A DNA stretch of 64,000 nucleotides from Thiobacillus sp. (GCF_030696885.1 NZ_JAUYRI010000017.1:161212-225211); one strand, 5' to 3'. Numbered from the stretch's first letter, positions 13,948 through 33,848 are shown. A program made the numbers and translations. Notes: a model not told the origin generated them from the sequence alone.

Positions 13948-15960
13948 TTACTTGACAAGCGTGTCGAGCGCTTGCGAATGCTGGACGAATTCTTTTTCGA
14001 AATCGATGGTATGTTTGGCCGACGACATCGCCAGCAGCGCGTGGCCCGGCTTGATGCGCAGCCAGATCCGGCGTTCGCGCACATAAAGCATGAAGAATAC
14101 GCCGAGCGTCAGCAAAAGCGAACCCAGGTAGACGATGTTCTGACCGGGCGAGCGGGTCAGCTGCAGGCCGCTGGCCTTGACCTCGTCGAACTGCATTAGT
14201 TGCAGATAGATCGGTGCGCCATAGACGAACAGGTCGCTCACGCTGTTGAGCGTGTCGCGCACCAGCCAGCCGGTGGCGTCGTCGGGCGCACGCGGCGGCA
14301 ACCCGGCTTCGCGGTTGGCAATCTGCAGCGCTTCGAAGGCGGCCAGCTCGAGAATGCGCAGATAGGTGCCGGCAGCCCGTTCACCATCGGATTCGGGCAC
14401 CCGCTCCTCGATGAAGCGGCCCAGCGACTGGAAGCCGCCCTCGGCGAACATGGCCAGCACCTGCGCCGCGCTGAACTTCAGCTTGTCCTCGATTTCGGTG
14501 CCCCAGGCCTCCTGTGGCAGCGCCTGGCGCGCGAAGCGGGCGGCGATCTCGGGGTGCTGTTCCTTGTTCAGCAACACGCCGCGCAGGCGCATGTAGCTGT
14601 CGATGCTGCCGTCGGCATCGAGCGGCATGCGCAGGTAGCGGAAGTCGTCCGTGGGTGTTTCGCGCACGCCCGACATCAGGAACCAGCGGCCCTCCAGCTC
14701 GAGCGGCAGCATGTAGTTGGAAAACTCGCGTGCCTGTCCACGCGCATCGCGCAGCTTGTACTGAAAGCTCGGACCGACGTTGCGCAGGTGCCGGTTGTCG
14801 CTGACCGGGCTGCCGCCGAGCACGCTCATGCTGTCGCGAGGCGTCTCGATTTCGCCGCCCATGTTTTCGATGTTGAAAGGGCGGAAATCGTTGAACTCGA
14901 GCGTGTAATCGCCGGCCGTGCTGGTCAAGGTGCTGTTCTGGTGAACCGTGCCTTCGAGGGGGAATTCTGAGGCCGTCGGGGCGAACAGGTTCCAGCCGCG
15001 CAGCGTCAGGCGGGTACCGCCGTCGGCGAAGCTCGCCTGATAGATGGCGACGCCGTCGTGGATCAGCGGGTGATTGACCTCGATCGTCGCTTCGCGGATC
15101 TTGTTGCCGGCGTGGTCGAACAGTTCGACGTCGCTCTCGAAGCTTTTCGGTTGTCCGGTGCTGTAGTGCTCGATGCGGAATTCCTTCAGCGCCACCACGA
15201 ACGGCAGTTCCTGCACCAGATAGCCGTCGGCCACGTTGAGGAAAGCCACGTCGGCGCTGGAGCCTTCGGGAATCTGCACGCTGCCGCGGAACGACGGATT
15301 GGACGGGGTCAGGCGCGAAATCGCCGGCACCTGGCTTTGCGGAATGTCGCGCGTTTCGATCTTCTTGTAGCCCAGCACCTGCTGCGCCTTGAAAATTAGG
15401 TTGCCGTCCATCAGACCGCCGATGCAGATGATCACGATGGCCGCGTGCGCCAGGAAATAGCCGAGGCGGTTCCAGCTCCCGGCCTTGGCGGCGAGCAGCA
15501 CGCCGCCCTCGCGCGGCACGTTTTTCACCTTGTAGCCCTGGCCTTCCAGGTAGCGCTGCGCGCTGGCGGCAAGTGCTTCTGGGGTTTGTTCGGTGGGCGC
15601 TTCGTGCTTGTGCTTGAACGCATTCAGCGACTGGTCGCTGACGTGCTCGCGGAAGCTTTTCATTTCGCGCGCGAAGTTCGGCGCGTTGCGCCAGATGCAG
15701 ACGCTGACGGATGCGACGAGGAAGGTCAGGATGACCAGAAACCACAGCGCATGGTAGACGTCGTACAGCCCCAGTTTCTCGAATACCTGGAACCAGAACG
15801 GCCCGAGCTGGATGAGGTAGTTGGCGTAGGGCTCGGACTGCTTCAGCACGGTGCCGATGATGGACGCGATCGCAAGGATGGACAGCAGGCTGATCGCAAA
15901 GCGCATCGAGCTCAACAGCTCGAACAGGGACTTGCCAAAGGAGTGGGAAGCAGTGGTCAT
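13948..15960 (-). CDS. resB: cytochrome c biogenesis system II protein ResB/Ccs1
   Basis: LSSMRFAISLL; GYFLAHAAI; VNHPL; LQLTRSPG; paired with ccsB. Confidence 0.92.
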   Translation of the reverse strand: MTTASHSFGKSLFELLSSMRFAISLLSILAIASIIGTVLKQSEPYANYLIQLGPFWFQVFEKLGLYDVYHALWFLVILTFLVASVSVCIWRNAPNFAREMKSFREHVSDQSLNAFKHKHEAPTEQTPEALAASAQRYLEGQGYKVKNVPREGGVLLAAKAGSWNRLGYFLAHAAIVIICIGGLMDGNLIFKAQQVLGYKKIETRDIPQSQVPAISRLTPSNPSFRGSVQIPEGSSADVAFLNVADGYLVQELPFVVALKEFRIEHYSTGQPKSFESDVELFDHAGNKIREATIEVNHPLIHDGVAIYQASFADGGTRLTLRGWNLFAPTASEFPLEGTVHQNSTLTSTAGDYTLEFNDFRPFNIENMGGEIETPRDSMSVLGGSPVSDNRHLRNVGPSFQYKLRDARGQAREFSNYMLPLELEGRWFLMSGVRETPTDDFRYLRMPLDADGSIDSYMRLRGVLLNKEQHPEIAARFARQALPQEAWGTEIEDKLKFSAAQVLAMFAEGGFQSLGRFIEERVPESDGERAAGTYLRILELAAFEALQIANREAGLPPRAPDDATGWLVRDTLNSVSDLFVYGAPIYLQLMQFDEVKASGLQLTRSPGQNIVYLGSLLLTLGVFFMLYVRERRIWLRIKPGHALLAMSSAKHTIDFEKEFVQHSQALDTLVK

Positions 15961-15999: not shown

Positions 16000-16130
16000 C
16001 TATCGACTCAGGGATGGCCAACAAGTTTACCCGAAGGTGCCGATCGTGACTGCAAAGCCGGCTAGTCCGAATGAACCCTGCTTCCCCAACGGGCGCGCGC
16101 CCGGCTAGAAAGCGTGAGCGGTCACCCCGT

Positions 16131-16745
16131 TCAGCGCAGGCCCTGGATATAGGCGGCCACGGCCTTCATCTCAGCATCGGTCATCTTGGCGGCGATGCTG
16201 CGCATCATCCGGGCGCCGTCGTTGGCACGGGCCTCGACGCGGAAGGCGTTCAGCTGCGTGTAGGTGTATTCCGCATGCTGACCGGCCAGGCGCGGGAACT
16301 GGACGGGGATGCCCTTGCCCTGAGCGCCGTGGCACGAAGCGCAAGCCGGCACGCCGGTGCCTTGCACGCCGCCGCGGTAGATTTTCTGGCCGATCAGCGC
16401 CAGCTCCTGGTCCTTGGCGGTCGCCGGCTTGGGCTGCTGGGCGCTAAAGTAGGCGGCCAGATTCTGCATATCCTGTGGGCTGAGGGTGCTGACAATGCCG
16501 CTCATCACCGGGTTCTTGCGCGCGCCAGACTTGTAATCGGTGAGCTGCTTGTGAATGTATTCCGCATTGAGCCCGGCCAGCTTGGGATTGGCCGCCGCGG
16601 CGCTGTTGCCGTCTGCCGCGTGGCAGGCCGCACATACTTGAGTGACGATGCTTTCGGCCGCCTTGGGGTCGCCTTTGACCGCAGTGGGGTTGGCGTAGGC
16701 GGAGGTGGTTGCGAGGAGTGCAACCAGAGAGACGACGAGTTTCAT
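16131..16745 (-). CDS. diheme cytochrome c4
   Basis: Signal peptide; two CxxCH motifs (CAACH, CASCH); PKLAG and PRLAGQH; distal Met residues. Confidence 0.93.
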
Positions 16746-16802
16746 CAAAAGCTCCTGAAGCTTGCAAAACTTGGGAAAACGGGTAGTTTAGCGGTAACTA
16801 AT

Positions 16803-17429
16803 ATGACTGCCAAGCCCGTGCTTAATCGCGCCCAATTCCATACATCGGTCGCCCAGCTGCGCGATTTGCCCTACAGCCAGGCGGAAATCGCGTTCGCCGG
16901 CCGGTCCAATGCCGGAAAGTCGAGCGCAATCAATCTGTTGACGCGAATCAATCGCCTCGCCTACACGTCCAAAACGCCGGGACGCACGCAGCTTATCAAC
17001 TTTTTCGCGCTGGACCCCGATATTTATCTGGTTGATCTGCCGGGCTACGGTTATGCCAAAGTGCCGCCCGCAGTGAAAGCAAAGTGGGAAACCCTGCTGT
17101 CGCGCTATCTGCAGGAGCGTGACGCGTTGCGGGGTCTGGTGCTGATCATGGATGCGCGCCACCCGCTCACCCCGCTGGACCGGCAGATGCTGGACTGGTT
17201 TACCCCTACCGGCAAGCCGGTGCACATTTTGCTGTCGAAGGCCGACAAGCTTTCCAACAGCGAAAAAGCGTTGACCTTGCGCAAGGTCAAGCAGGAAATC
17301 GCCGCGCGCGACGGCGTCAGCGTGCAGCTGTTTTCCAGCCTGTCGCGCCAGGGTGCCGACGAGGCGGCTGCACTGATCGAGGGCTGGTTTGCGCAGTCGC
17401 GGCAGCCCGATACCCAGAGCGCCGGATGA
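16803..17429 (+). CDS. yihA: ribosome biogenesis GTPase YihA/YsxC (EngB)
   Basis: G1 [10 protein letters not shown]; SKTPGRTQ; DLPGYG; SKADK; start MTAKP at 16803. Confidence 0.96.
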
Positions 17430-17579: not shown

Positions 17580-18611
<1,032 letters not shown>

Positions 18612-18743: not shown

Positions 18744-19532
18744 ATGCCCACCATTCCAAAACTTCCATTCGGCATCAAAAACCGTCGCCAGGACCCAGAC
18801 GAATGGGACAAGACGATTGTTGCCTTTCAGTCGCCCTACCGGCTGAAGGACCTGTGCCTCGACCAGAGCAAGGCGCAGGACGAGGAGATGACCCGCGTCA
18901 GCCGTCAGGAATTCAAGGTGCGTCTGGCGACGACGGACGACCGGCGCAAGTCCGCCAGCCTGCTGATTGAAAAGATGTACAGCTGGCGCGGGTATGAAAG
19001 CGATAGCCTGAATCACGACCCCAACCGGATCACCCTGGTGGCTTACCAGGAGAACATCGTGGCCGGGACGGTGACACTGGGACTGGACAGCCATAAAGGG
19101 CTGGTGGTGGACGAGTTGTACAAGGAGGAGGTCGACACGCTTCGGGCTCAAGGCCGAAGAATTGCCGAGTTGACCAAGCTGGCCGTGGATGAAAGTGCAG
19201 CCTCCAAATCGGTCCTGGCTGCGCTGTTTCATATTGCCTTCATCTATGCTTTCCACATCCACAAGTACACAGACTTTGTGATCGAGGTGAACCCGCGCCA
19301 TGTGTTCTTCTACAAGCGGATGCTGGGATTCGAACTGCTCGGGCATGAGCGGATGTGCCCCCGGGTCAACGCACCGGCCGTCCTGCTGCATCTGGACCTG
19401 AGTTATATCGAGCAGAAAATCGCCACGCTGGGGGGCGCGTTGCCGCCGCCACCCGGAGAAAAGTCGCTCTATCCCTACGGATTTTCAAAAGAGGATGAAC
19501 TGGGTATCGCGCAACGCCTTCAAGGCGGCTAG
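18744..19532 (+). CDS. FeeM-like long-chain N-acyl amino acid synthase (GNAT fold; PEP-CTERM/exosortase-associated acyltransferase type)
   Basis: RKSASLLIEKMYSWRGY; GTVTLGLDS...LVVDELY; AELTKLAVD; DFVIEVNPRHVFFYKRMLGFE; CPRVNAPAVLLHLDL. These motifs are typical of FeeM-domain NAS proteins. Confidence 0.8.
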   Translation: MPTIPKLPFGIKNRRQDPDEWDKTIVAFQSPYRLKDLCLDQSKAQDEEMTRVSRQEFKVRLATTDDRRKSASLLIEKMYSWRGYESDSLNHDPNRITLVAYQENIVAGTVTLGLDSHKGLVVDELYKEEVDTLRAQGRRIAELTKLAVDESAASKSVLAALFHIAFIYAFHIHKYTDFVIEVNPRHVFFYKRMLGFELLGHERMCPRVNAPAVLLHLDLSYIEQKIATLGGALPPPPGEKSLYPYGFSKEDELGIAQRLQGG

Positions 19533-19649
19533 GAATTGGCTTCACCGAGGCTTGGTGCAACGCGCGGCCAGTTTGACTGCAAACAATGCAAGCCCTTGTC
19601 CGCATGCGCCGATCCATACGTTGGCGCAGCCCCCTGAGAGCAGGATGCA

Positions 19650-20753
19650 ATGAAAAAATGTAAGCAATGCCTGTTGCCGGCGGCCGTGCCCGGCTCGCAG
19701 ATCGGTCCCGATGGCGTGTGCGGTTTTTGTCGCGCGCCCGCTGCCGAACGGGCATCGGTCCAGCCCAACCCGGCCCATCGTGACGATCTGGAGCAGACCC
19801 TGCGCGCCGCCCACGGGGGGACGGGTCGTGGCCAGTATGATTGCCTGGTTCCGCTCAGCGGTGGCAAGGACAGCATCTATCTGCTGCACAAGCTGAAGGT
19901 CGAGTATGGCCTGCGCGTGCTGGCGTACACCACCAACATCGATCTGCCGGAGGTGGCCTGGAGCAATATCCGCACCGCGCTGGCCCGCCTCGACATCGAC
20001 CACGAAGTCTTCAACCCGGCGCCTGCGTTCATCAGAAAACTGTTCCGCTACCTGCTGCAAAACCAGGAAGCGCGCGGTGCCGTCTACACGGTGTCCTATG
20101 TCTATGCGCCGCTGTTCGAGGGCGATGCCATTCGCCTGGCGATCGAGAAAGACATTCCGCTGATTCTTGCCGGCTATTCGCCCGGTCAGCCCGAACCAGA
20201 GCGCATGCTGTACGAGTTTTCTCCCGAGCTCATCCGCGCGGAAGACTGGACGCCACCCCAACTCAAGACCTGCGGCGCGTTCACCGACGATGAGTTGAGG
20301 CGCTTCTACAATCCGCTTGAAATGCCCGCAGATACGCGCTTTCCACGCTATCTTGCGCCATTCCACGCGTGGGATTACGACCAGGACGAGGTCATGCGCA
20401 AGGTCGCCGAACTCGGCCTCGTCAAGCGCGGCCGCCATGCCAGCCCGATCGTCAGCAACTATCCGATCAACTGGCTGATGATGTATTCCGACCTCAAGCA
20501 TTTCGGCTACAACCCGTATGCCCCGGAGTTTGCCGCGCTGATACGCGAAGGCAAGGCCAGCCTGAACCACTGGCGGATCATGGCGCCATTGGTCGACTTC
20601 ATGATCCGGCGCAAGGTCCTGCTTGGCCGCGACGTCAGCCGCAGCCAGCAATGGCTCGACCTGACCGACGACGACCTGCGCATCAACCTGCCCGAAGGGG
20701 CGTATGACCCGCCCCTCCTGCGCCGGCAGGCACGCGATGCCGGCCGGGCCTGA
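19650..20753 (+). CDS. PP-loop (AANH) N-acetyl-sugar amidotransferase-like protein (WbuX/WbpG/PseA-like)
   Basis: N-terminal CKQC...GVCGFC; YDCLVPLSGGKDS PP-loop; LRVLAYT. Substrate unknown. Confidence 0.7.
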   Translation: MKKCKQCLLPAAVPGSQIGPDGVCGFCRAPAAERASVQPNPAHRDDLEQTLRAAHGGTGRGQYDCLVPLSGGKDSIYLLHKLKVEYGLRVLAYTTNIDLPEVAWSNIRTALARLDIDHEVFNPAPAFIRKLFRYLLQNQEARGAVYTVSYVYAPLFEGDAIRLAIEKDIPLILAGYSPGQPEPERMLYEFSPELIRAEDWTPPQLKTCGAFTDDELRRFYNPLEMPADTRFPRYLAPFHAWDYDQDEVMRKVAELGLVKRGRHASPIVSNYPINWLMMYSDLKHFGYNPYAPEFAALIREGKASLNHWRIMAPLVDFMIRRKVLLGRDVSRSQQWLDLTDDDLRINLPEGAYDPPLLRRQARDAGRA

Positions 20754-22509
20754 CAGCGTCCCCAACTGGCTTGCGGCACGCGCCGCACAGTCGCCGCAGC
20801 AACCGGCCTACTGGCAGCGCACGTCCGCAGGCGACTGGACAAGCGTCAACTGGGGCGAGGTGCAGGACCGCGTCCAGACGCTGGCCGCGCACCTGCTGCG
20901 CTTGGGCCTGCGTGCCGGCGACCGCGTCGCCATCATGATGCCGACGGTGCCCGAGTGGGAATACTGCCACTTGGCCGTGCTGGCTGCAGGCGGCGTGGTG
21001 GTCGGCATCGACGCCCACGATGCGCCCGAAAATACCCGCCACATCCTGCACACCGTTCGGCCGCGCGCGCTCTGCCTGGCAGCAGGCGAACAGCTCGAAT
21101 CGCTGAAAGCGCTGATGCCCGAGCCGCCGGACATCGTGGTGACGCTGGATGCGGACAACGCGCCCGGCATCACATCGCTCCCCTGCCTGCTCACGGCCGC
21201 CTGCGATCCGGTGCAGCCTCTGCCGGAGGTGAGTCCAGACCAGACGGCGACCCTCGTTTTCACTTCGGGCAGCACCGGCCAGCCCAAAGGCATCGCCTAT
21301 ACTCATGGACAGCTCTGCCTGGCGGCTGAGGCCATCCTCAGCCGTTTCCCGTCCATTCAGGCCGACGCCCGGCTGGCGTGCTGGCTGCCGCTGTCCAACC
21401 TGTTCCAGCGCATCATCAACCTGTGTGCACTCAAACGCGGCACCCAGTGCTACTTCGTCGATTCGCCGGCCGACATCGTCAAGCGGCTGCCGGAAATCCG
21501 TCCTGCACTGTTCATCGGCGTGCCGCGTTTTTACGAAAAGCTGCATGCGGGCATCGAGGCCGAAATCGCGCGCCAATCCTGGCTGGCCAGGCAGGCAGTT
21601 CGCGTAGCCTGGCGCATCGGCGAGCGTTTTCAGCGGACGCGGCGAGCGGGCGGGTCGCCCGTCTGGTGGAGCGTTGCGGCGCATGCGCTCGCCGACCGGC
21701 TTGTCTTGCAGAAGCTGCGCCACCTGATGGGACCGGACCTGAAGTTCATGGTCAGCGGCTCGGCGCCGATGCCGCCCTGGCTGCTGGACAAATTGCATGG
21801 TTTGGGCTGGCTGGTGCTGGAAGCCTATGGCATCAGCGAGTGCGTCGTGCCGATCGCCAACAACACGCTCGAAGCCTACCGTTTCGGCAGCGTCGGCCGG
21901 CCGCTGCCGGACAACGTACTCAAGCTGGCCGATGACGGAGAAGTGCTGGTGCGCGGGCCGGGCGTTTTCACGGGCTACTACGGCCAGGCGGACGCCGACA
22001 CCCCGCTCGACGCCGATGGTTACCTGCATACCGGGGATCTTGCGCGCCTCGATGCAGACGGGTTTTTGTGGCTCACCGGGCGCAAGTCCGAAGTATTTAA
22101 GACCTCGACCGGGCGGCGCATCGCGCCGGTGCCGATCGAGTCGGCGCTGAGGCAATTGCCCTATGTGGAACATGCCGTGGTGTTCGGGCGCAACCGGCCG
22201 GTTGCGGTCGTCCTGCTCAGCGTGACCCCGCAACCGGTCGGCTTCACCGCACCCTTGTCCAGCGAGACACTGCGCCGCATCGGTGATGACATCGCCGCTG
22301 CCTGCGCCCCGTTCCCTGCTTATCAAAGGCCTGCGGGCGCGCTGGTGAGCCCGCGCGGTTTCAGCATCGCCGCCGGCGAACTGACCAGCAATCTGAAGCT
22401 CAGGCGCAATGCCATCGAGACCCTCAACGAGCGCGAAATCGACGCGCTGTATGCACAGCTCGCCGATTCAACCGATCATTCCCGCTGCCTGATCCAGGAG
22501 ATTGCATGA
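20737..22509 (+). CDS. AMP-dependent synthetase/ligase (long-chain acyl-CoA ligase-like)
   Basis: FTSGSTGQPKG; FIGVPRFYEK; EAYGISEC; LHTGDLA; GRKSE. The start overlaps the upstream gene. Confidence 0.88.
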   Translation: MPAGPDSVPNWLAARAAQSPQQPAYWQRTSAGDWTSVNWGEVQDRVQTLAAHLLRLGLRAGDRVAIMMPTVPEWEYCHLAVLAAGGVVVGIDAHDAPENTRHILHTVRPRALCLAAGEQLESLKALMPEPPDIVVTLDADNAPGITSLPCLLTAACDPVQPLPEVSPDQTATLVFTSGSTGQPKGIAYTHGQLCLAAEAILSRFPSIQADARLACWLPLSNLFQRIINLCALKRGTQCYFVDSPADIVKRLPEIRPALFIGVPRFYEKLHAGIEAEIARQSWLARQAVRVAWRIGERFQRTRRAGGSPVWWSVAAHALADRLVLQKLRHLMGPDLKFMVSGSAPMPPWLLDKLHGLGWLVLEAYGISECVVPIANNTLEAYRFGSVGRPLPDNVLKLADDGEVLVRGPGVFTGYYGQADADTPLDADGYLHTGDLARLDADGFLWLTGRKSEVFKTSTGRRIAPVPIESALRQLPYVEHAVVFGRNRPVAVVLLSVTPQPVGFTAPLSSETLRRIGDDIAAACAPFPAYQRPAGALVSPRGFSIAAGELTSNLKLRRNAIETLNEREIDALYAQLADSTDHSRCLIQEIA

Positions 22510-23645
22510 GCGTTTATTTTCTAACCGGCGGCACCGGTGCGGTGGGCAGCTCGATCGTGCCGCTGCTGCTGGCCGATCCCGACACCGAAGTCAGGTTGTT
22601 ATTGCGCGCCGAGTCGGATGCTGCCCTGGCGGAGCGCATGCAATCTCTGGCCGGCTATTGGGGCTGGGCCGAATCGTCTGAGCAGCGCGCACGGGTCAAG
22701 GCCTACCGGGGCGATGCTGCCGTAGCGAATTTCAATTTGCCGGATGACCAGTACGCGGAGCTGGTCGGGGCGTGCACGCATCTCATCCACAGCGCCGGGA
22801 CGGTCCGCATGAATTTGTCGATCGAGGATGCGCGTCGCTCCGCGGTCGGGTCCGCCCAGGCAACCGTTGATTTCGCCCGCCGGCTGGCTGCCGCAGGGCG
22901 ACTGCGCAAGTTCGACTATGTCAGCACTGTCGGCGTCGCCGGCAAACGCCCCGGCGCCCTGCCCGAGATCTGGATGGACGAGCCGCGCGCGTTTCACAAC
23001 ACCTATGAGCAGGCCAAGGCCGAAGCCGAGGAAATTATCCGCCGCGCCATCGTCGACGAAGGGCTGCCGGTCACCGTGCACCGCCCGAGCATGGTGATCG
23101 GTGATGCGCGCGACGGTCGCATCATCCATTTCCAGATTTTCTATTTCATCTGCGAATTCCTGTCCGGCTGCAAGACGCGGGGCCTGTATCCGGATTTCGG
23201 CGAGGTCAGGCTCGACGTCATTCCCGCCAACTGGGTGGCCGAAGCCATCGTCGCCGCCAGCCGCGATCCGCAGACAGCGGGGCGCATCTTTCATTTGTGC
23301 AGCGGCCCGGAGCAGGCGCCGCGGCTGGAAGAACTCAAGGCGTTGGTGCGCACCGCCTTCACCACCCACGGCATGCGCGTACCCCTCGGCATTCGCATGC
23401 CGCGCGGCGTATTTGCCGCGCTTGCCCGGGTGGCCGCCCGTCTGGCGCCGCCTTCCCAGCGCAAGGCTTTGTCCACCCTGCCCATCTATCTCGATTACCT
23501 GGCCGACCGGCAGGGCTTCGACAACGCGGCGTATACCGGCTGGCTGGCCAGCCGCGGCCTGCGTCTTCCGCTGGCCGCAGACTACTTGCCGCGGGTGCTG
23601 GGTTATTACCTGGACAAGCGCTACCCGCCCGACACCGAGGCGTAA
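22506..23645 (+). CDS. extended SDR, thioester-reductase / fatty acyl-CoA reductase-like (NAD_binding_4)
   Basis: LTGGTGAVGS; IHSAGTV; YVSTVGVAG; catalytic YEQAK; HRPSMVIGD; ATGA overlap with the ligase. Confidence 0.82.
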   Translation: MSVYFLTGGTGAVGSSIVPLLLADPDTEVRLLLRAESDAALAERMQSLAGYWGWAESSEQRARVKAYRGDAAVANFNLPDDQYAELVGACTHLIHSAGTVRMNLSIEDARRSAVGSAQATVDFARRLAAAGRLRKFDYVSTVGVAGKRPGALPEIWMDEPRAFHNTYEQAKAEAEEIIRRAIVDEGLPVTVHRPSMVIGDARDGRIIHFQIFYFICEFLSGCKTRGLYPDFGEVRLDVIPANWVAEAIVAASRDPQTAGRIFHLCSGPEQAPRLEELKALVRTAFTTHGMRVPLGIRMPRGVFAALARVAARLAPPSQRKALSTLPIYLDYLADRQGFDNAAYTGWLASRGLRLPLAADYLPRVLGYYLDKRYPPDTEA

Positions 23646-23685
23646 AGCGTTCCGCGCCAGGGCGGGAGGGGGTGTGTCGGCACGC

Positions 23686-25317
23686 TCAGTCGCGCGGCGG
23701 CGTGCCGTAGCGTCCGGGGGCGATCAGGTTCTGCGGGTCGAGCGCCTGCTTCAGTGTCGCCAGCATGTCCTTTGCGACTGGATTTGAGTCCAGCGCCCCG
23801 GTCATGCTCATGGTCGTCGTGCGGTAGGTCGGATAGCCCTGCGCGAGGAAGGCATCGTGCATTTCCTGGTACCAGGCCCGCGCGCGTTCGGCTTCGGCTT
23901 CGTCCTTGCGCTCGTAGAACACCCCCGCCAGCACGATCACCGAGCGGGCGCTTTCGACGATCACCTCGACGAAGAAATCGAACTCGTGGCGGGCGAAGAT
24001 GGGCTTGGCCAGCTCAAGCGCTTGCGTCACGTGGGTGGAGGTGAACGGCACCACCGGGCCGATCCAGACAAACCCGCACTGGTCGCGCGCCGGGTCGATA
24101 TCGGTGGACGGCTTCTCCTGGTGCGACTTGAAATACGCCTGGCGGACGAAGTGGTCGGTGGGGATGCCGCGAAACAGATTGATCGCCGGAACCATCGCCT
24201 CGTAGAACGAATCGGCCTTGCCCAGCAGCCGGTTGCCCCAGCGTGCTGCCAGACGAAAAACCCGGCCCTTCCACTTGTCCTGGACCGAGGCGCCGACGAA
24301 GCGTATCAAGCCGTAGCGTCCCAGCGTCTGCTTGATGGCGCGCTTCTGGAAGCGGATTTCCTCCGGACTGCCGTACAGGCCGCAGCCGAAGGTCCAGCGC
24401 GCCACCCCATATTTTTTTCGCCAAGCGGCGGCAGCGTCCTCGCTTAAATTGCGCGCGCCTTCCAGCAGGTCATGCGGGTACTGGGAAAAAATGCACATCA
24501 TGGCAAAGTCGTTGGCCAAGTGCGGCCGCGCACGTAGCGCGCCCTGGAATACCAGCTTGCGCAGGTCGTCGATGAACGGTCCGAACTGCGCTTCCGTGGC
24601 GGTGTATTCGAAGGCGGCGAAGTCGAAGCGCTCGGGCGCCGGCATCAGCCAGATGCCCGACTGCACCACGATGCCGAGGTTGGATTGGGCGAACAGCCCA
24701 TCCAGATAAGGTCCCACCCCCCATTTATAAGTATGGCGGATCTGGTTGTTGCCGGCGGGGCCGCCGCCGGTTTCCAGAAGTTGTCCGTCCGGCAGCACCA
24801 CGTCCATGCCGCACAGGCAGCCAAAGTGGTCGGCATAGGGCGTGAGCCCCCGGCCCTTGTCGAGTGCATTGCCCAGCACGCTGGCATATTGCGTGGTGCC
24901 CGCCGTGTCGGCCCAGAAGCCCGATCCGTGTTCTTTCAGGTAATCGTTCAACTGCTTGTAGGTGACCCCCGGCTCGATCACCGCATAGCCCAGTTCTTCA
25001 TCCACCTGCAGGATGCGGTTCATGCGTGAAAGGATCAGGGTGATTCCACCCGGGTAGCAGGCCGTTCTTTCTCCATACCCCCAGTTCTTGCCGGTGCTCA
25101 CCGGCCAGACAGGCACGTCGAATTCGCGGGCAAGCTGCATCACCGCCTGCACCTGCCCGGCATTGGCCGGATACACCACGACGGCGGGCAACTCGCGGTA
25201 GGGGATGCAGGTGCGCGAGGCCACCTCCAGCTGGCCGGGCTCGCTCAGCACATTGTCAGGCCCCAGGTGCGCCTGGAGCTTTTCGAGCAGGCCTGCAGGG
25301 AGCGGTGTGGCGGTCAT
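23686..25317 (-). CDS. VAO/p-cresol methylhydroxylase-family FAD-dependent oxidoreductase
   Basis: PVWPVSTGKNWGYG; VIEPGVTY; LCGMDVVLPDG; LFAQSNLGIV; LKQALDPQNLIAPG; start MTATP at 25317. Confidence 0.85.
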   Translation of the reverse strand: MTATPLPAGLLEKLQAHLGPDNVLSEPGQLEVASRTCIPYRELPAVVVYPANAGQVQAVMQLAREFDVPVWPVSTGKNWGYGERTACYPGGITLILSRMNRILQVDEELGYAVIEPGVTYKQLNDYLKEHGSGFWADTAGTTQYASVLGNALDKGRGLTPYADHFGCLCGMDVVLPDGQLLETGGGPAGNNQIRHTYKWGVGPYLDGLFAQSNLGIVVQSGIWLMPAPERFDFAAFEYTATEAQFGPFIDDLRKLVFQGALRARPHLANDFAMMCIFSQYPHDLLEGARNLSEDAAAAWRKKYGVARWTFGCGLYGSPEEIRFQKRAIKQTLGRYGLIRFVGASVQDKWKGRVFRLAARWGNRLLGKADSFYEAMVPAINLFRGIPTDHFVRQAYFKSHQEKPSTDIDPARDQCGFVWIGPVVPFTSTHVTQALELAKPIFARHEFDFFVEVIVESARSVIVLAGVFYERKDEAEAERARAWYQEMHDAFLAQGYPTYRTTTMSMTGALDSNPVAKDMLATLKQALDPQNLIAPGRYGTPPRD

Positions 25318-25346: not shown

Positions 25347-25376
25347 ATTCTAGCCCGTGGGCCACGGCGGTGTAAG
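25347..25376 (-). promoter_or_regulatory. possible sigma70 promoter for the flavoprotein gene
   Basis: Minus strand TTACAC-17 nt-TAGAAT, just downstream of the PEP-CTERM terminator. Confidence 0.35.
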
Positions 25377-25404: not shown

Positions 25405-25434
25405 ATAAAAAAGCCCCTCCAACTGGAGGGGCTT
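25405..25434 (-). terminator. intrinsic terminator after PEP-CTERM gene 1
   Basis: AAGCCCCTCC-N4-GGAGGGGCTT followed by a T-run on the minus strand. Confidence 0.85.
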
Positions 25435-25473: not shown

Positions 25474-26331
25474 TTAAGCGCGCTTCTTGTTGCGGCGAGC
25501 GATGCCCAGACCGAGCAGGCCGATACCCAGAAGGGCGAGGGCTGCGGGTTCCGGGACGACCGTCGCGCCGCGGGTGTTCAGCGTGCCCTGCAGACACCAT
25601 GCGCCGGGAGCAGCCTGACCCGTTGCGCAACCTGCGGCGAAGCCGTCGGCGACGTCTTCGGGGTTCAGGACGAAGTTGTTGCTCGACGAGGTCAGCACGA
25701 TGTCGGCGAAACCGCCGAGGTTGTCAGCGATGGAGTTGCCATCCAGGTAGGCTGCGACCGAAGCCAGACCGAACACAGCGCTAATGTCGACATCAACCAT
25801 GCCCTGGCCGTTCTGGGTCAGCGTGGCGCCCGTCAGGGTGCCGTTGCCGTTCAGCGTCTGGGTGGCATTGAAGCCCACCGGGTTCACCACGTTGAAGATC
25901 GGATCGGCAAAGGTATGGCCGAGCAGGCGAACCCAAGGCGTCATGCCCTGGATGGTCGCAACGTTGGTCGGCGAGTTCTGGTCGAACATGTTCAACTGGG
26001 GGCCCGCGTTGTAATAGATGTCAATTACGCCGCCGGTGAACTGAACCCCTGCGCCGTTGAAGGCGGAGACGGTGTAATTGGAAAAGTGGTAATACAGCGA
26101 GCAGCTGCCGACTGCGCAGTAATTGTTCGAGCCGTTGATGGTGGAGATGACGCCGTAACCCTGCAGCGACTGGCCGACACCGTTGACGAAGGTTTCGGCG
26201 AGCGTTGCCGTTTCAATGTGGACGGTACTGCCCAGTGCGCCGAAGTTGATGCCGCCAACGACGACGGCGGCGGCGGGTGCGGAAGCTGCGATTCCAAGTG
26301 CGGCAACTGCAGCGGTGATGATTTTGTTCAT
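25474..26331 (-). CDS. PEP-CTERM sorting-domain protein 1 (resembles flocculation-associated PepA type)
   Basis: Signal peptide; Gly/Asn/Thr-rich body with LQGYGVISTING; C-terminal VPEPAALALLGIGLLGLGIARRNKKRA. The PepA resemblance is from memory only. Confidence 0.92.
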   Translation of the reverse strand: MNKIITAAVAALGIAASAPAAAVVVGGINFGALGSTVHIETATLAETFVNGVGQSLQGYGVISTINGSNNYCAVGSCSLYYHFSNYTVSAFNGAGVQFTGGVIDIYYNAGPQLNMFDQNSPTNVATIQGMTPWVRLLGHTFADPIFNVVNPVGFNATQTLNGNGTLTGATLTQNGQGMVDVDISAVFGLASVAAYLDGNSIADNLGGFADIVLTSSSNNFVLNPEDVADGFAAGCATGQAAPGAWCLQGTLNTRGATVVPEPAALALLGIGLLGLGIARRNKKRA

Positions 26332-26392: not shown

Positions 26393-26522
26393 GCAACAGC
26401 TGTGCCAGACCGAGGGTGTGTCTATAAAAAAACCATTAATTCAATGACTTGTTTCGTTGTTTTGCCGTCCGGGCATGCGCTATGCAGGCCCTTCAATCCA
26501 TCATGTGTAAAGTTTTTCGACA
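26393..26522 (-). promoter_or_regulatory. sigma54 promoter + IHF site + enhancer (UAS) cassette for PEP-CTERM gene 1
   Basis: -24/-12 TGGCACAGCTGTTGC (26407-26393); IHF-like ATTCAATGACTTG (26439-26451); TGT-N11-ACA site TGTAAAGTTTTTCGACA (26506-26522). Confidence 0.85.
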
Positions 26523-26716: not shown

Positions 26717-29500
26717 TCAAAGCCGCTTGAGCAGTTGCCTGGCGGCGTCGGCCTCGGCTGCAGGGAGTTGGGGGAATTCCCTGAGCACGAATTCGAGCTC
26801 CTGGCGTGCCTGGGCCCGATTGCCGCTGCGGGCCAGGGCGACGGCATGGTGGTAGCGAATCATGCCCGCCTTGGGCGCGGCGGCGGCGGCCTTGCCCAGG
26901 AGCTCGAGGCCACGCGCTGATTTCCCCTGTTCAACCAGCAGCCAGCCCACGGTGTCCTGGATCGCCGGATTGTCCGGCGCGAGTTTCAGGGCCTGTTCGG
27001 CGGTGCCCAGGGCGCGGGGGTCTTTCTGCCGTTGATAGAGGCTGGCCAAGTTGTTGAGGACCAGAGCGTTGTCAGGATGTTGCCGCTGGATGGCCTCATA
27101 TTGGGCAATGGCGTCCTGGATCCGGCCCGCAAACATGTAGTACTCGGCGGCGTGGTTGCGCACGGCCATGTCGTCGGGATGCTGTTTGAGCCAGTCGTTC
27201 AGGCGTTGCCCGGCGGCCTGGGTGTTGCCGGCCAGAATATGGGCGCGGTGCAGTTTGGTCAGGCCCGCCGATCCGGCGCCTTTATCCAGCGAGGTCTCAT
27301 AGGACTGAATGGCCTGCGGCAGGCGCTTCTGGTCAAGATGAACGTCGCCTTCGCGATCGTAGCCCAGCGGCAAGGCGGGGAATTGTGTCTGGATCTGGCG
27401 GGCGATTCTCAGGGCGACTTCAGGGTTTTTGTCGGACAGCTCAAGACTCAGCAGGGCATCTTGGCTTTGCAGATGGTCGGGTTTGAGTTGCAGGGCTTTC
27501 TGCAGCGAGACGCGGGCGGCGGCCAGATCTCTGTTTGCGACCTGCGCCATGGCAAGACGCATGAACGCATCGGGGGACCGGCTGGCCTTTTTGGTTGACA
27601 GGGTGTATGTGGTGATCGCGTTGGCGATGTCGCCGGTCGTCAGTTGGGTGCTTGCCAGCAGGTTGAGCGCTTCGGGGTTGTCCGGATTGGCGTTGACGGC
27701 CTCGCGCGCCGTGGCGAGCGCGCCGTTGACGTCCCCCTTGGCGAGCCGATGGCGGGCCAGGCCGGCGTACGGCTGCAGGGCTTGCGGATGGGCTTTCGCG
27801 GCTTTTTCAAGCCAGCTCACATGCGCTGTTTCATCCTTTTCCCCCAGGCTGATGTCCGCTAGGGAGAGCATGGCCTGCATGTGATTGGGCTCGGCTTTGA
27901 GGATGCCTTCGTAGCGTTTGCGCGCGCTGGCCGTCCGTCCCGCCGCCAGGTCCAGCCGGGCGAGACTGTCCGCGGCGGGGAAGAATTTCGGGTCGATTTT
28001 CAGGGCCTGTTCAAAGCTGTCGCGTGCCTTGGCATGGTCGTTCTTGCCGAGATAGGCGGTGCCACGATAACTCCACACCAGCGGGTTTTTCGGCTGTTTC
28101 TTCTCCAGGGCGGCGATGCTGGACAGCGCGGCGTCAAATTGTCGCTTGCTGAGCTGGTTGAGGATGATCAGGGTGTCTGCCCGGCTGCCCGCGTCTTCCA
28201 TGTCGGCGGCTGACTGCAAGTCGGCCATGGCGCGCTGGTCGCCCTGGGCCAGTCGGGCCAGGCCCAGTTCCGTGCGTATCGCTGCACTGTCGGGGTTGAG
28301 GTTGACGGCGGTTTCAAAAAGACGGGCGGCCCCGGCATAGTCCTGTCTCGCCAGGGCGATTTCTCCGGCGATAGTGTAGAAGCCGGCATCCGCGGTCTTC
28401 GCGAAATCGATCGGTGCCAGGGTTTTCTCGGCATCCTCCGGCCGCCCCAGGCGCAATTGGGTGGCCGCCAGCATTTTGAGCGCGGCGCTGTTTTCCGGCG
28501 CTGCACGGGCCACCTTGTTGAGGTGCAGCTCGGCGGTCTGCAAGTTGCCCAGGGCAAATTCGATATGCCCGCCCAGCAACAGGGCGGGCAGGGCGTTGGG
28601 GGCGATTTTCAGGGCTTCCTGGAGGGCATTGCGGGCCTCGGGATATTTTTTCTCCTTGTAGTGGTACATGGCCTGCAGGTAGTGGACGGCAAGCGATTGG
28701 GGGAAATGCTTGCGGAGGGTCTGGATGTCGGCCTCGGCGAGTTCCATTCGGTCCATTTTGATGTGGGTGGTCGCCCGGTTTTGCAGAGCTTCCAGATTCT
28801 GGGGTTCGAGCTTCAGTGCGCTGGAATAGGCGGCCACGGCACCTGCGTCGTCCTGCCTGATCTGTGCGAGATCGCCCACATAAACCCAGGTCCTGGCTTG
28901 CCTGTCCTGGATCTTGAGCGCGGCATCGAGCCATTCCTGGGCTTTGGCCGTATCGCGCTCGGCCAGTGCGCATTGCGCCAGCCCCCAGTAGGTCGCCGGG
29001 TTGTCGGCGCTGATGCCGAGCGATTGCTGGTAGAGGTTGCAGGCATCTTTCAGGCTGCCCTGCCTGCGCATGGCATCGGCCCGAATCTGCAGAATGCGTG
29101 CGAGATTGAGCTGGGACGTCTGGTCTCCGGCCTGGATTTCATCCAGCACGCGTGCGTACTCGCCCATCAACAGCAAGGCTTCGCCGAGATGGGGCTTGAT
29201 GGATTCGCGGTTGACCCCGAGCTTGACGGCCTGGGTGAGCTCCTTTTCGGCTTCGGCGCCCATGTCCAGCTTCAGATAAATCTGCCCCAGCAACAGTCTG
29301 GCCTGCGCGCTGTCGGGGTTTTTCTGGATGGCGTTTTTCAGCTCGAGAACGCTGCCCCGGGGATTGCCCTTGTCCTCGAAGTCCTTGGCCCGCTCGATGT
29401 GCTCCTGTTCGGTGAGGCTGGCGGTGCGGTCGCATCCGGAAAGCGTCACGGATGCGGCGAAGGCCAGGGCGATGGCCAGGGCGACGGGGTGTTGGGTCAT
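26717..29500 (-). CDS. prsT: XrtA/PEP-CTERM system TPR lipoprotein PrsT, copy 1
   Basis: Lipobox LSGC; ELKNAIQKNPDSAQARLLLG; about 927 aa of TPRs; C-terminal DTVGWLL...YHHAVAL. Confidence 0.9.
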   Translation of the reverse strand: MTQHPVALAIALAFAASVTLSGCDRTASLTEQEHIERAKDFEDKGNPRGSVLELKNAIQKNPDSAQARLLLGQIYLKLDMGAEAEKELTQAVKLGVNRESIKPHLGEALLLMGEYARVLDEIQAGDQTSQLNLARILQIRADAMRRQGSLKDACNLYQQSLGISADNPATYWGLAQCALAERDTAKAQEWLDAALKIQDRQARTWVYVGDLAQIRQDDAGAVAAYSSALKLEPQNLEALQNRATTHIKMDRMELAEADIQTLRKHFPQSLAVHYLQAMYHYKEKKYPEARNALQEALKIAPNALPALLLGGHIEFALGNLQTAELHLNKVARAAPENSAALKMLAATQLRLGRPEDAEKTLAPIDFAKTADAGFYTIAGEIALARQDYAGAARLFETAVNLNPDSAAIRTELGLARLAQGDQRAMADLQSAADMEDAGSRADTLIILNQLSKRQFDAALSSIAALEKKQPKNPLVWSYRGTAYLGKNDHAKARDSFEQALKIDPKFFPAADSLARLDLAAGRTASARKRYEGILKAEPNHMQAMLSLADISLGEKDETAHVSWLEKAAKAHPQALQPYAGLARHRLAKGDVNGALATAREAVNANPDNPEALNLLASTQLTTGDIANAITTYTLSTKKASRSPDAFMRLAMAQVANRDLAAARVSLQKALQLKPDHLQSQDALLSLELSDKNPEVALRIARQIQTQFPALPLGYDREGDVHLDQKRLPQAIQSYETSLDKGAGSAGLTKLHRAHILAGNTQAAGQRLNDWLKQHPDDMAVRNHAAEYYMFAGRIQDAIAQYEAIQRQHPDNALVLNNLASLYQRQKDPRALGTAEQALKLAPDNPAIQDTVGWLLVEQGKSARGLELLGKAAAAAPKAGMIRYHHAVALARSGNRAQARQELEFVLREFPQLPAAEADAARQLLKRL

Positions 29501-29658
29501 CTATACATACTCCACTCATTGAGGCGGTTTTCAGCCGGCCTTCGACGTTGAACAGGGCGACTCAAGCGGCCTGGCGGCGATCAGGGCGTCCGGATTGCCG
29601 TGCGGTGCCCGCAATACGCGCGCGTATTTACCATTTTGCCCTGTGCGATTTTTCAAGC

Positions 29659-32495: not shown

Positions 32496-33848
32496 TTATT
32501 TCATTCCGATTTTTGCCATCAGGTCGTACAGGGTGGGCCGGGTGACCCCGAGCAATTCGGCGGCCTGGGCGATGTTGCCCTCGCTGTGGGCGAGCGCCCG
32601 GCTCACGGCCAGACGTTCGGCGTGTTCGCGTGCCTGGCGCAGGTTGAACGGCTGCAGTTCGGTCGGGCCGTCATCGAGTCCGAGGTCGGCGGCGGTGATC
32701 TGGGTACCGTCCGCCATGATGGTGGCGCGCTTGATCATGTTTTCCATTTCGCGCACGTTGCCGGGCCAGCCATGGCCTTCGAGCGCTGCCAATGCGTCGG
32801 CGGTGAAACCCTTGATTCCACGCCCCATCTCGCGCGCGTTGCGTTCCAGAAAGGCCTGCGCCAGCAGCACGGCGTCGCCGGCACGCTCGCGCAGCGGCGG
32901 AATCTGAATGGCGATTTCGGACAGCCGGTAGTACAGGTCTTCGCGGAATCCGCCTTCGCGGATCATGCCGGCAAGGTCGCGGTGGGTGGCGCAGACTACG
33001 CGCACGTCGACCGGGATTTCGCCGCGGCCGCCGAGGCGCTCGATCACGCGCTCCTGCAAAAAGCGCAGCAGCTTGGCCTGCAACGGCATCGGCAGGTCGC
33101 CGATTTCATCGAGGAAGAGCGTGCCTTCGTTGGCATACTCGATCTTGCCGATGGTTTGCTTGGCCGCGCCGGTGAAGGCGCCCTTTTCGTAACCGAACAG
33201 TTCGGATTCCAGCAGGGTGTCGGGAATCGCCGCGCAGTTGATGGCGACAAATCGCTTGCCGACGCGCGGCGACAGTTCGTGCACGCCGCGCGCCAGTACT
33301 TCCTTGCCGGTGCCGGACTCGCCGAGCAGCAGCACGGTGGCGTTGGCGGGCGCGACTTTTTCAACGGTGCGGCAGACTTTCAGCATCGATTCGCTGCTGG
33401 TGATCAGACCGGACAGGGCGGAACCGCCCTTCTGGTTGAGCAGTAGGCGGTTCTCAACTTCGAGCGTGTGCACGTGCAGCGCGCGGGCGATCATCAGCGC
33501 GAGCACATCGGGGTCGAAGGGTTTCTGGAAAAAATCGTAGGCGCCGAGCTGAATGGCCTTGACCGCATTGCTGCGATCGAGGTTGCCGGTGACGACGATG
33601 ACCTTGGTGACGGGCGCCAGCGACAGGATCTGCTGCAGTGCGGCCAGCCCTTCGCTGGCGCCGTCGGCGTCGGGCGGCAGGCCGAGGTCGAGCAATACCA
33701 CCGCGGGTTCGTGGCGGCGCAGCTGGGCGATCGCGCTGTCGCGGTCGGCGGCCAGCACCAGCTCGTAGTCGCCGAGGCTCCATTTCAGTTGCTTTTGCAG
33801 GCCGGGATCGTCTTCCACCAGCAGGATTTTTTGTTTGGCGTCGCTCAT
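32496..33848 (-). CDS. prsR: PEP-CTERM-box sigma54-dependent response regulator PrsR
   Basis: REC domain LLDLGLPPD; AAA+ GESGTGKE and GAFTGA; C-terminal HTH; follows prsK. Confidence 0.95.

Follow-up and report, generated by a model that had tools for sequence, protein, structure and literature searches.

A putative pathway for lipo-amino-acid tailoring beside the regulatory genes of a Thiobacillus XrtA/PEP-CTERM exopolysaccharide locus

The window analysed here, a stretch of 64,000 nucleotides of Thiobacillus DNA, carries five genes between hemB and a block consisting of a PEP-CTERM gene, two PrsT genes, PrsR, PrsK and EpsB. The left flank, hemB (porphobilinogen synthase; 17,598–18,611, plus strand), is identified by model NF006762 (1.9e-151) and by synteny in sibling genomes. 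The five open reading frames show coding-type codon bias (GC3 0.73–0.81) at the positions and on the strands given in a preliminary description of this DNA, whose family assignments are all upheld (PF21926, PP-loop, AMP-binding, NAD_binding_4 and FAD_binding_4), as is the setting between hemB and the PEP-CTERM gene. A FeeM-type synthase of N-acyl amino acids (NAS; 18,744–19,532, plus; PF21926, 3e-55) is followed on the same strand by three genes, hereafter the trio, encoding a zinc-ribbon PP-loop ATP pyrophosphatase (19,650–20,753), an AMP-forming, FadD11/ACSL-like long-chain acyl-CoA ligase (20,704–22,509) and a stand-alone SDR of the thioester-reductase type (22,506–23,645). Convergent on the trio lies the gene of a flavoprotein from the 4-phenol-oxidising PCMH/VAO/eugenol-oxidase group (23,686–25,317, minus), with a sigma-70-like promoter match just upstream of its start (25,347–25,376, minus; 9/12 of the consensus, a consensus match only).

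To the right, the PEP-CTERM gene (25,474–26,331, minus) encodes a protein of the PepA-like flocculation type, with a TIGR02595 domain at residues 259–283 and the C-terminus VPEPAALALLGIGLLGLGIARRNKKRA; its match to NF033554 (9e-12) falls under the cut-off. An intrinsic terminator 3' of this gene (25,411–25,434, minus; a 10-bp stem with 7 GC pairs, then a T-run) separates it from the flavoprotein gene, and the sigma-54 promoter consensus TGGCAC-N5-TTGC stands 62 nt upstream of it with zero mismatches (26,393–26,407, minus). The only other perfect sigma-54 match in the window, at 53,331–53,345, likewise precedes a PEP-CTERM gene. Beyond lie, all on the minus strand, two tandem XrtA/PEP-CTERM TPR lipoproteins PrsT (26,717–29,500 and 29,659–32,448; TIGR02917, 865 and 940 bits, cut-off 312), the sigma-54-dependent response regulator PrsR (32,496–33,848; TIGR02915, 770 bits), the histidine kinase PrsK (33,845–35,929; TIGR02916, 928 bits) and an EpsB-type XrtA/PEP-CTERM priming glycosyltransferase (35,952–37,346; TIGR03013, 550 bits, cut-off 393). 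XrtA itself is encoded in the same genome, about 126 kb beyond the window (G000:C17:351160-351936, 368 bits), so that PrsK, PrsR, PrsT, the EpsB-type transferase, PEP-CTERM substrates and XrtA, which together mark an XrtA/PEP-CTERM locus, are all present.

The NAS scores 186.7 bits to the FeeM model PF21926 (cut-off 27), over 157 of the model's 158 positions, and aligns to the NAS segment of NF011425, the model of the NAS–ThiF–nitroreductase fusion. Against TIGR03694, the PEP-CTERM/exosortase system-associated acyltransferase (cut-off 112 bits), the window's NAS gave no match at E <= 0.1; a second acyltransferase type, present in other trio loci, scores 221 bits to that model. From its family, the NAS is predicted to make long-chain N-acyl amino acids from acyl-ACP or acyl-CoA, and the connection of such synthases with PEP-CTERM/exosortase systems, already pointed out in the preliminary description, is borne out by published work (PMC7293339, PMC11072679). 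The NAS is a fixed resident of this locus in the genus, trio or no trio: it occurs in 24 of 25 Thiobacillus genomes, versus 2 of 25 for the trio, on a scaffold that runs from engB through hemB (the left flank) and NAS to a variable slot and then PrsT. In sibling Thiobacillus, this slot holds ThiF with or without a nitroreductase, a methyltransferase or a glycosyltransferase; in the window, it holds the trio and the PCMH/VAO-type flavoprotein. ThiF and nitroreductase match the acyl-oxazolone synthesis of OxzAB/TyzABC (PMC10404671; bioRxiv 10.1101/2020.06.11.147165), and both are absent from the whole genome to which the window belongs. Because the sibling slot would thus serve a route from the same kind of precursor, the trio is most readily understood as an alternative module, so far uncharacterised, for tailoring the N-acyl amino acids associated with exosortases. 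The two routes do not strictly exclude each other, since trio and ThiF occur together in four loci (L015, L035, L046 and L059).

Judged by sequence, the first trio protein is a distant relative of the N-acetyl sugar amidotransferases (NASAT; WbuX/WbpG). It carries both motifs by which NASAT enzymes are defined, the tetracysteine CxxC...[GN]xCxxC (here CxxC...GxCxxC) and the PP-loop SGGxDS (here SGGKDS) (PMC10607449). C4, C7, G22, C24, C27 and the SGGKDS at 70–75 are invariant or nearly so in 11 diverse homologues, and identity across phyla is 60–98%. A Pfam search matched no family; the score to TIGR03573 (WbuX) is 95.3 bits, under the cut-off of 203.2, and LpNASAT (PDB 8wex) is matched at 1.6e-11 by sequence, with 19% identity and a fold TM of 0.61. 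A TtuA/NcsA/LarE-type sulfur transferase was considered and rejected, as only the four zinc-ribbon cysteines are invariant, with no extra conserved cysteine for a [4Fe-4S] cluster or for catalysis, and the fold similarity to such enzymes is weak (TM about 0.3).

The ligase combines AMP-binding (6e-65) with AMP-binding_C_3 and matches NF038343 (FadD11) at 3e-75, under the cut-off of that model. Comparison of its N-terminus with those of homologues makes the ATG at 20,737 a likelier start than that at 20,704; the overlap with the PP-loop gene is 50 nt, or 17 nt from the likelier second ATG. It may be that the ligase just activates ordinary fatty acids, a point that counts against the pathway proposed below. 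In the SDR, the features of thioester reductase SDRs are all found, namely NAD_binding_4 (PF07993, 1.7e-43), TGxxGxxG (TGGTGAVG, residues 7–14) and YxxxK (YEQAK, about residues 167–171); it matches the thioester-reductase domain model TIGR01746 at 2.5e-36 (125.7 bits, under the domain cut-off of 213) and the MxaA reductase domain 4u7w at 1.6e-22. Its gene overlaps that of the ligase by a 4-nt ATGA, retained in 26 of 46 loci, and both overlaps within the trio are as previously described. Neither a carrier protein nor a HisH/HisF-type glutaminase is present in the locus, which also counts against the proposed pathway.

Elsewhere, the order PP-loop, ligase, SDR is collinear in essentially all of about 80 loci, distributed over Beta-, Gamma- and Alphaproteobacteria, Desulfobacterota, Kiritimatiellae and Omnitrophota. 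The five genes together do not form a conserved unit; what is invariant, and mobile, is the trio. The preliminary description had treated them as a single cluster and had named beforehand, as a test of that proposal, whether they co-occur elsewhere. The set does recur (for example in loci L014–L016, L018, L020, L041, L051, L092 and L094), and this part of the proposal stands; its unity gives way to a conserved trio, a genus-fixed NAS and an optional flavoprotein. In Thauera and Aromatoleum, the trio adjoins rplU–rpmA–obg–proB, far from the EPS locus, a placement that likewise counts against the proposed pathway. Recurrent neighbours include an MGT-type glycosyltransferase and a hexapeptide acyltransferase, together with LolCDE-like, LolA-like and MMPL exporters that are consistent with an exported lipid. 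We found no published description of the trio or of the five-gene set in the literature searched, in agreement with the preliminary description, which did not recognise the enzyme combination as a known pathway.

The trio is linked both to NAS and to the XrtA system. In at least 12 loci, NAS lies directly upstream of the trio on the same strand, and of the 42 fully flanked trio loci, 17 (about 40%) have one at a distance of up to 10 kb; the remaining 60% or so, with no NAS within 10 kb, count against a joint pathway. At the genome level, a strong FeeM match (E <= 1e-15) is found in 44 of 60 trio genomes, versus 12 of 250 class genomes and 6 of 41 XrtA-positive genomes (Fisher p = 5e-9, a statistic that ignores shared ancestry among trio genomes), an enrichment that is still 5-fold against the XrtA-positive set. 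XrtA scores above its cut-off in 11 of 12 trio genomes, and PEP-CTERM, Prs or EPS markers flank the trio in 35 of the 42 loci.

The flavoprotein (PF01565, 4e-29) matches PDB entries 9fge (1.8e-77) and the p-cresol methylhydroxylase (PCMH) flavoprotein 1dii/1wve (6.8e-72), with the eugenol and vanillyl-alcohol oxidases next in strength (about 1e-57 to 1e-51; 5fxd, 4e-56; 1vao group, about 1e-51). Its WGYG aligns to FGYG of PCMH and its YR to the YR of PCMH; the GYG tyrosine and the Tyr-Arg pair are the phenolate-binding residues of PCMH. Residues of about 342–413, the segment for the covalent FAD residue (PCMH Tyr384, VAO His422), are left unaligned by HMMER. The flavoprotein is optional: about a third of trio loci have it, and in the window it has a promoter-like site of its own, as judged by the consensus match.

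We interpret the locus, with a probability of roughly one half, as a lipo-amino-acid tailoring pathway attached, at its regulatory end, to an XrtA/PEP-CTERM exopolysaccharide system. At similarly even odds, the substrate of the trio would be an N-acyl lipid, probably of tyrosine, whose carboxyl it would reduce and whose amide it would activate with ATP; trio and flavoprotein together probably turn the NAS lipid into a product not yet described. An N-acyl aromatic amino acid that undergoes carboxyl reduction, amide activation and benzylic oxidation, as first proposed, stays the best reading, with the chemistry deduced from enzyme families. The NAS would link a fatty acid and an amino acid; tyrosine is the probable amino acid, given that the partner flavoprotein falls in the 4-phenol oxidase group. 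The translationally coupled ligase and SDR would then convert the free carboxyl of the lipid to a thioester and further to an aldehyde or alcohol, and the NASAT-like PP-loop enzyme would adenylate the acyl-amide carbonyl, whose oxygen could then give way either to ammonia, yielding an amidine, or to the oxygen of the neighbouring carbonyl, in a cyclodehydration. NASAT enzymes swap an amide oxygen for NH (PMC10607449), and the PP-loop proteins CongE and OzmP are proposed amide-activating oxazole cyclodehydratases (PMC4504003). More speculatively, ring closure of the activated N-acyl amino aldehyde could yield a head group of the imidazole or oxazole type with 2-alkyl and 4-(4-hydroxybenzyl) substituents. 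We envision that the p-hydroxybenzyl position would be oxidised by the flavoprotein via a quinone methide. An N-acyl amino acid has exactly the two groups that these enzyme classes use, the acyl-amide and the free carboxyl.

The trio could also act independently of the NAS, its ligase and reductase making a fatty aldehyde or alcohol from an ordinary long-chain fatty acid and its PP-loop enzyme adding nitrogen, and the XrtA system would use the resulting lipid, for instance to anchor or accept sorted PEP-CTERM proteins or the polysaccharide. The frequency of XrtA in trio genomes and of PEP-CTERM, Prs or EPS markers around the trio, the many loci with no NAS within 10 kb, the recurrent exporters and the fatty-acid CoA ligases that are the nearest relatives of the ligase would all fit. 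However, NASAT-type PP-loop enzymes need an existing amide, which a plain fatty acid or aldehyde does not have; FeeM-type synthases are enriched in trio genomes even over XrtA-positive ones; and a nearby NAS, where present, sits directly upstream on the same strand. We therefore consider such independence unlikely. The flavoprotein, for its part, could be an oxidative decarboxylase of FeeG/CndG type, so that NAS and flavoprotein yield N-acyl-4-hydroxystyrylamine eneamides and the trio acts on another substrate or only on the amide of the eneamide. The preliminary description had presented FeeG as a PCMH-like flavoprotein that makes N-acyl enamides; the flavin oxidase and its eneamides hold, with the qualification that FeeG, like CndG and HyeB, acts by decarboxylating N-acyl-Tyr (PMC11959600, PMC8762209). 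The optional occurrence and promoter-like site of the flavoprotein agree with such a role, as do the glycosyltransferase and hexapeptide transferase that co-occur as in the hye cluster. An enzyme of this kind would remove the carboxyl that ligase and reductase need, and would compete with carboxyl reduction instead of following it. Since the nearest solved relatives, PCMH and eugenol oxidases, hydroxylate or dehydrogenate and do not decarboxylate, and since the constant coupling of ligase and reductase to the PP-loop gene would be left unexplained, this role is distinctly improbable.

Finally, the PP-loop protein might be an ordinary NASAT that makes acetamidino sugars for the exopolysaccharide, next to an unrelated ligase and reductase. 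LpNASAT is its best match by both sequence and fold, the NASAT motifs are present (PMC10607449) and EPS clusters often host trio loci. Against this stand a TIGR03573 score far under the cut-off (95 vs 203 bits), the low identity to 8wex, the order with ligase and SDR, fixed and often overlapping over about 80 loci of different phyla, the lack of HisH/HisF-like partners or nucleotide-sugar genes adjoining the PP-loop gene in the window, and the genuine NASAT paralogues, at 28–34% identity, that are encoded separately in some of the same genomes. Taken together, these observations make an ordinary NASAT very improbable.

Tailoring of the NAS lipid by the trio finds partial parallels in several known systems. 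OxzAB (Pseudoalteromonas rubra and other Proteobacteria) and TyzABC/TrzAS (mycobacteria) share its logic of an ATP-using activation followed by a flavoenzyme that oxidises the tyrosyl side chain, and their ThiF, with or without the nitroreductase, occupies the same slot beside the same NAS in sibling Thiobacillus. The window instead has a PP-loop enzyme, an acyl-CoA ligase, a thioester reductase and a VAO/PCMH-type flavoprotein; its ATP-using enzyme belongs to another superfamily, and a reductive step is added. The fee (eDNA) and hye (hyellamide) clusters likewise pair a NAS with a flavin oxidase whose target is the 4-hydroxyphenyl amino acid moiety, and hye resembles related trio loci also in its glycosyltransferase and hexapeptide acyltransferase (PMC11959600). 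Both clusters, however, lack the PP-loop enzyme and the ligase/reductase pair, and decarboxylation by FeeG is incompatible with carboxyl reduction of the same molecule.

For the PP-loop protein, the NASAT enzymes (WbuX, WbpG and LpNASAT) offer the tetracysteine zinc motif, SGGKDS, a similar fold and an expected chemistry of ATP-dependent acyl-amide activation, whereas the trio protein diverges in sequence, reaches half the family cut-off score and has no HisH/HisF partner. Because its gene is always in an operon with a lipid-type ligase and reductase, the substrate is probably a lipid amide, not a nucleotide sugar. CongE and OzmP, of the conglobatin and oxazolomycin pathways, also carry an SGGKDS PP-loop and are proposed to activate an amide oxygen in forming an oxazole from an acylamino-carbonyl (PMC4504003), a logic that would suit an N-acyl amino aldehyde, their own mechanism being itself only proposed; unlike the window's protein, both work in Streptomyces on polyketide/NRPS intermediates bound to a carrier. 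The ligase and SDR recall carboxylic acid reductases and fatty acyl-CoA reductase systems, in which an adenylating enzyme is followed by an NAD_binding_4 thioester reductase; in the window, these are two split proteins with an ACSL/FadD11-like ligase and no carrier domain, and their substrate is probably an N-acyl amino acid, not a plain acid.

We derived the gene order of the window, which comes from a Thiobacillus genome, from a GC3-weighted ORF call combined with profile searches. On the forward strand, engB (16071–17429, a YihA/EngB GTPase) and hemB (17598–18611) are followed by the FeeM-type (PF21926) N-acyl amino acid synthase gene (NAS, 18744–19532) and then by three genes, hereafter the trio, encoding a PP-loop protein (19650–20753), an AMP-forming ligase (20704 or 20737–22509) and a thioester-reductase SDR (22506–23645). 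The reverse strand carries a VAO/PCMH-type flavoprotein gene (23686–25317), a PEP-CTERM gene (25474–26331), two PrsT genes (26717–32448), PrsR (32496–33848), PrsK (33845–35929) and an EpsB-type glycosyltransferase gene (35952–37346). The ligase and SDR genes overlap by ATGA, and the PP-loop and ligase genes by 17–50 nt, depending on the start codon. The preliminary description had read the NAS, the trio and the flavoprotein as one lipo-amino-acid cluster in a PEP-CTERM locus; its family assignments for all five genes and the gene overlaps are borne out. GC content is 0.60–0.65 over the region, with no clear compositional signal of horizontal transfer. The EngB ORF is 452 aa long, its GTPase domain being confined to residues 254–436; the N-terminal extension of ~250 aa aligns at ~65–71% identity in sibling Thiobacillus genomes and hence seems genuine and conserved.

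Transcription signals set the flavoprotein gene apart. A strong terminator 3′ of the PEP-CTERM gene (25411–25434) and a sigma-70-like site 5′ of the flavoprotein gene (25347–25376) suggest that the latter is transcribed as a separate unit that converges on the NAS–trio genes. Perfect sigma-54 consensus sites (TGGCAC-N5-TTGC) occur just twice in the window, both times ahead of PEP-CTERM genes: one at 26393–26407 (−), 62 nt 5′ of the gene at 25474–26331, and one at 53331–53345 (−), ~60 nt 5′ of that at 52456–53271. This arrangement fits PrsR as a sigma-54 activator and PrsR/RpoN control of PEP-CTERM genes. The window has a third PEP-CTERM gene at 53577–54410. The NAS and the trio were also considered as targets of sigma-54/PrsR control, and this was rejected, as the window scan found no sigma-54 consensus 5′ of either.

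Neither the PP-loop protein, the key member of the trio, nor any of its best 120 homologues has a Pfam match. Where these homologues bear a name, it is mostly ‘hypothetical protein’, and in a few UniRef entries N-acetyl sugar amidotransferase, assigned by similarity. When 11 homologues from Beta- and Gammaproteobacteria, Caulobacterales, Verrucomicrobia and Bacteroidetes were aligned (71% mean column identity), the only invariant cysteines were C4, C7, C24 and C27, and SGGKDS was invariant too. Tetracysteine and SGGKDS-type motifs define N-acetyl sugar amidotransferases (NASATs; PMC10607449). The nearest NCBIfam model, TIGR03573, scores 95 bits against a cut-off of 203, and the AlphaFold model of the protein (pLDDT 82.5) aligns with LpNASAT (8wex) along its whole length with a TM of 0.61 at 19% identity, other PP-loop enzymes matching far more weakly. 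Motifs, sub-cut-off score and predicted fold together point to a distant, distinct relative of NASAT. A sulfur-transferase role (thioamide or thioacid) was rejected, the conserved cysteines being those of a zinc ribbon only; the lack of further cysteines speaks against sulfur chemistry of the TtuA or LarE kind.

By profile searches the ligase is FadD11/ACSL-like with an AMP-binding_C_3 C-terminal domain, and the SDR is of the stand-alone thioester-reductase type, with the motifs TGGTGAVG and YEQAK. The flavoprotein matches the p-cresol methylhydroxylase (PCMH) flavoprotein at 7e-72, with eugenol and vanillyl-alcohol oxidases slightly weaker, and retains the Tyr and Tyr-Arg aligned with the PCMH GYG and YR. 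Its reading as an alkyl-DHAP synthase of ether lipid formation was rejected (AGPS 1e-7 versus PCMH 1e-72).

The trio itself is conserved well beyond Thiobacillus. A pattern scan with one genome per species identified 207 species with a PP-loop relative, from which 80 loci were fetched; in essentially every sufficiently long one, the order PP-loop, ligase, SDR is kept on one strand, and the 4-nt ligase/SDR overlap is retained in 26 of the 46 loci with calls for both genes. Carriers include Thiobacillus, Hydrogenophilales, Methylomonas, Thiothrix, Desulfobacterales, Desulfuromonadaceae, Rhodospirillales, Kiritimatiellae, Omnitrophota and Rhodocyclaceae (Thauera, Aromatoleum, Azoarcus, Accumulibacter, Propionivibrio). 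Of the 42 loci flanked by 8 kb or more to either side, 35 have one or more PEP-CTERM, Prs or EPS markers, 24 have LolCDE-like ABC or LolA-like genes, 17 a NAS-type acyltransferase (FeeM or TIGR03694 type) and 15 the flavoprotein; an MGT-type glycosyltransferase, a hexapeptide acyltransferase, a GMC oxidoreductase, a methyltransferase and an MMPL exporter also recur. Co-occurrence elsewhere, which the preliminary description had put forward as a check on the five-gene set, was indeed found: the complete set stands together in at least nine other loci, spanning several families. It had also not recognised the enzyme combination as a described pathway, and our literature searches returned nothing describing it. 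In Thauera and Aromatoleum (loci L028–L036), the trio lies directly 3′ of rplU-rpmA-obg-proB, far from the XrtA locus, and the FeeM-type synthase sits ~10 kb from XrtA on a different contig. One Kiritimatiellae MAG (G095, the genome of locus L085) has 16 FeeM-family matches, an unusual NAS expansion.

Adjacency is ambiguous evidence for a functional link, because both the NAS and the trio favour exosortase loci; we therefore compared whole genomes. Of 12 trio genomes searched for XrtA, 11 have it above cut-off, as do 41 of 250 drawn evenly across the class. Strong FeeM matches (E ≤ 1e-15) occur in 44 of 60 trio genomes; at the same threshold the background is 12/250 for the class and 6/41 for its XrtA-positive members. 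Relative to the latter, the odds ratio is 16 (Fisher p = 5e-9), a value that ignores shared ancestry and includes many incomplete MAGs. The association between trio and FeeM is clearly greater than the exosortase link alone would yield.

An N-acyl amino acid offers an acyl-amide and a free carboxyl, exactly the groups on which the enzyme classes of the trio act, and from this we infer, as the likeliest mechanism, a tailoring sequence with its substrates, order of steps and products; what the analysis itself shows are the family assignments, the gene linkage and the phyletic association. The NAS would make N-acyl-Tyr or another aromatic N-acyl amino acid, the carboxyl of which would be adenylated by the ligase and reduced as a thioester by the SDR, yielding an aldehyde or alcohol. 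The NASAT-like PP-loop enzyme would use ATP to activate the amide carbonyl, so that the amide oxygen is replaced or used: with ammonia, an amidine would form, which beside an aldehyde would close spontaneously to an imidazole; with attack by the neighbouring carbonyl oxygen, the product would be an oxazole. Oxazole closure by carbonyl-oxygen attack has been proposed for the PP-loop proteins CongE and OzmP (PMC4504003). Finally, the 4-phenol oxidase would oxidise the p-hydroxybenzyl carbon. An azole as product is speculative. A bolder and rather unlikely reading, at a probability of 0.2, is that the trio is an undescribed azole-forming cassette, converting exosortase-associated N-acyl amino acids into exported 2-alkyl imidazole- or oxazole-type (or amidine-aldehyde) lipids that partner XrtA, as a PrsK/PrsR-sensed signal or as a PEP-CTERM acceptor or anchor.

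Several observations weigh against this sequence. The NAS is not nearby at most trio loci, and our searches yielded neither a glutaminase partner nor a carrier protein. It is possible, if doubtful, that the trio instead makes a nitrogen-bearing lipid for the exosortase system from plain fatty acids; the distance from the NAS at most loci is consistent with this, and the genome-wide excess of FeeM matches points the other way. FeeG-like flavin oxidases decarboxylate (PMC11959600, PMC8762209), and such a step by the flavoprotein would remove the very carboxyl that the ligase needs, a difficulty for the proposed sequence. A role for the flavoprotein as a FeeG-type decarboxylase, with the trio acting elsewhere, is in our estimation rather improbable. 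An ordinary sugar amidotransferase role for the PP-loop protein seems very unlikely: the shared motifs stand beside a score far under the family cut-off.

The link between NAS and exosortase is already published, as are clusters of a NAS plus a flavin oxidase. The PP-loop/ligase/reductase trio had no description in the literature searched, and neither Pfam nor NCBIfam has a model dedicated to it; the locus is best regarded as a cluster for tailoring N-acyl amino acids, in which the tailoring cassette is uncharacterised and very widely conserved. Exosortase and NAS systems matter in floc and biofilm formation by wastewater and environmental bacteria. Also at issue are the acceptor to which exosortase A attaches PEP-CTERM proteins and the reason why N-acyl amino acid synthases accompany exosortase systems. 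With three or four genes that can be expressed in E. coli, the locus gives direct access to what is likely a new chemistry of lipid head groups, and to the small molecules of exosortase biology.

Comparison within Thiobacillus places the trio in a variable slot. Of 25 genomes searched, 24 contain the NAS and only 2 the PP-loop gene, and sibling genomes maintain the scaffold engB-hemB-NAS-[2–7 kb]-PrsT-PrsT-PrsR. Their variable stretch encodes a ThiF-family protein (PRK08223, 461 bits) and, depending on species, nitroreductase-superfamily, methyltransferase, GT4 glycosyltransferase, PIG-L deacetylase, alpha/beta hydrolase and PEP-CTERM genes. On the 989-residue NCBIfam model NF011425, the window NAS matches positions 90–200, the sibling ThiF 312–581 and the nitroreductase from 616, so this model appears to represent a natural NAS–ThiF–nitroreductase fusion. 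NF011425, NF011424 and NF005901 are named ‘hypothetical protein’ or ‘Rv1355c family’; their matches suggest NAS–ThiF–nitroreductase and ThiF–nitroreductase fusions, which would be oxazolone-synthetase-type enzymes.

In locus L014 (G024:C7), from a sibling genome, the PP-loop and ligase genes are frameshifted. Pseudogenisation was rejected; these are probably errors of a long-read assembly, as XrtA in the same 7-contig assembly also has an internal stop. Beside its full flavoprotein gene lies a partial second copy (15170–15700; residues 4–181, 84% identity).

NAS, ThiF and nitroreductase together constitute the acyl-oxazolone route characterised for OxzAB and TyzABC (bioRxiv 10.1101/2020.06.11.147165; PMC10404671), and this ThiF-like partner has also been reported for the stieleriacine cluster (PMC7293339). 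A search of the window's genome found neither such a ThiF nor such a nitroreductase. The nearest public locus, L015 from an uncultured Thiobacillus (98% identity), carries both trio and ThiF: a second FeeM-type NAS and a ThiF-family gene (~14000–15740) lie between SDR and flavoprotein, where the window has only a 40-bp gap; an oxazolone-type module has recently been gained or lost within this one slot. Whereas the OxzAB/TyzABC-type slot of sibling Thiobacillus holds ThiF with or without a nitroreductase, the window's NAS is followed by the trio and flavoprotein; the NAS product would thus be tailored in a variable slot, by the known oxazolone route in some species and by the trio here.
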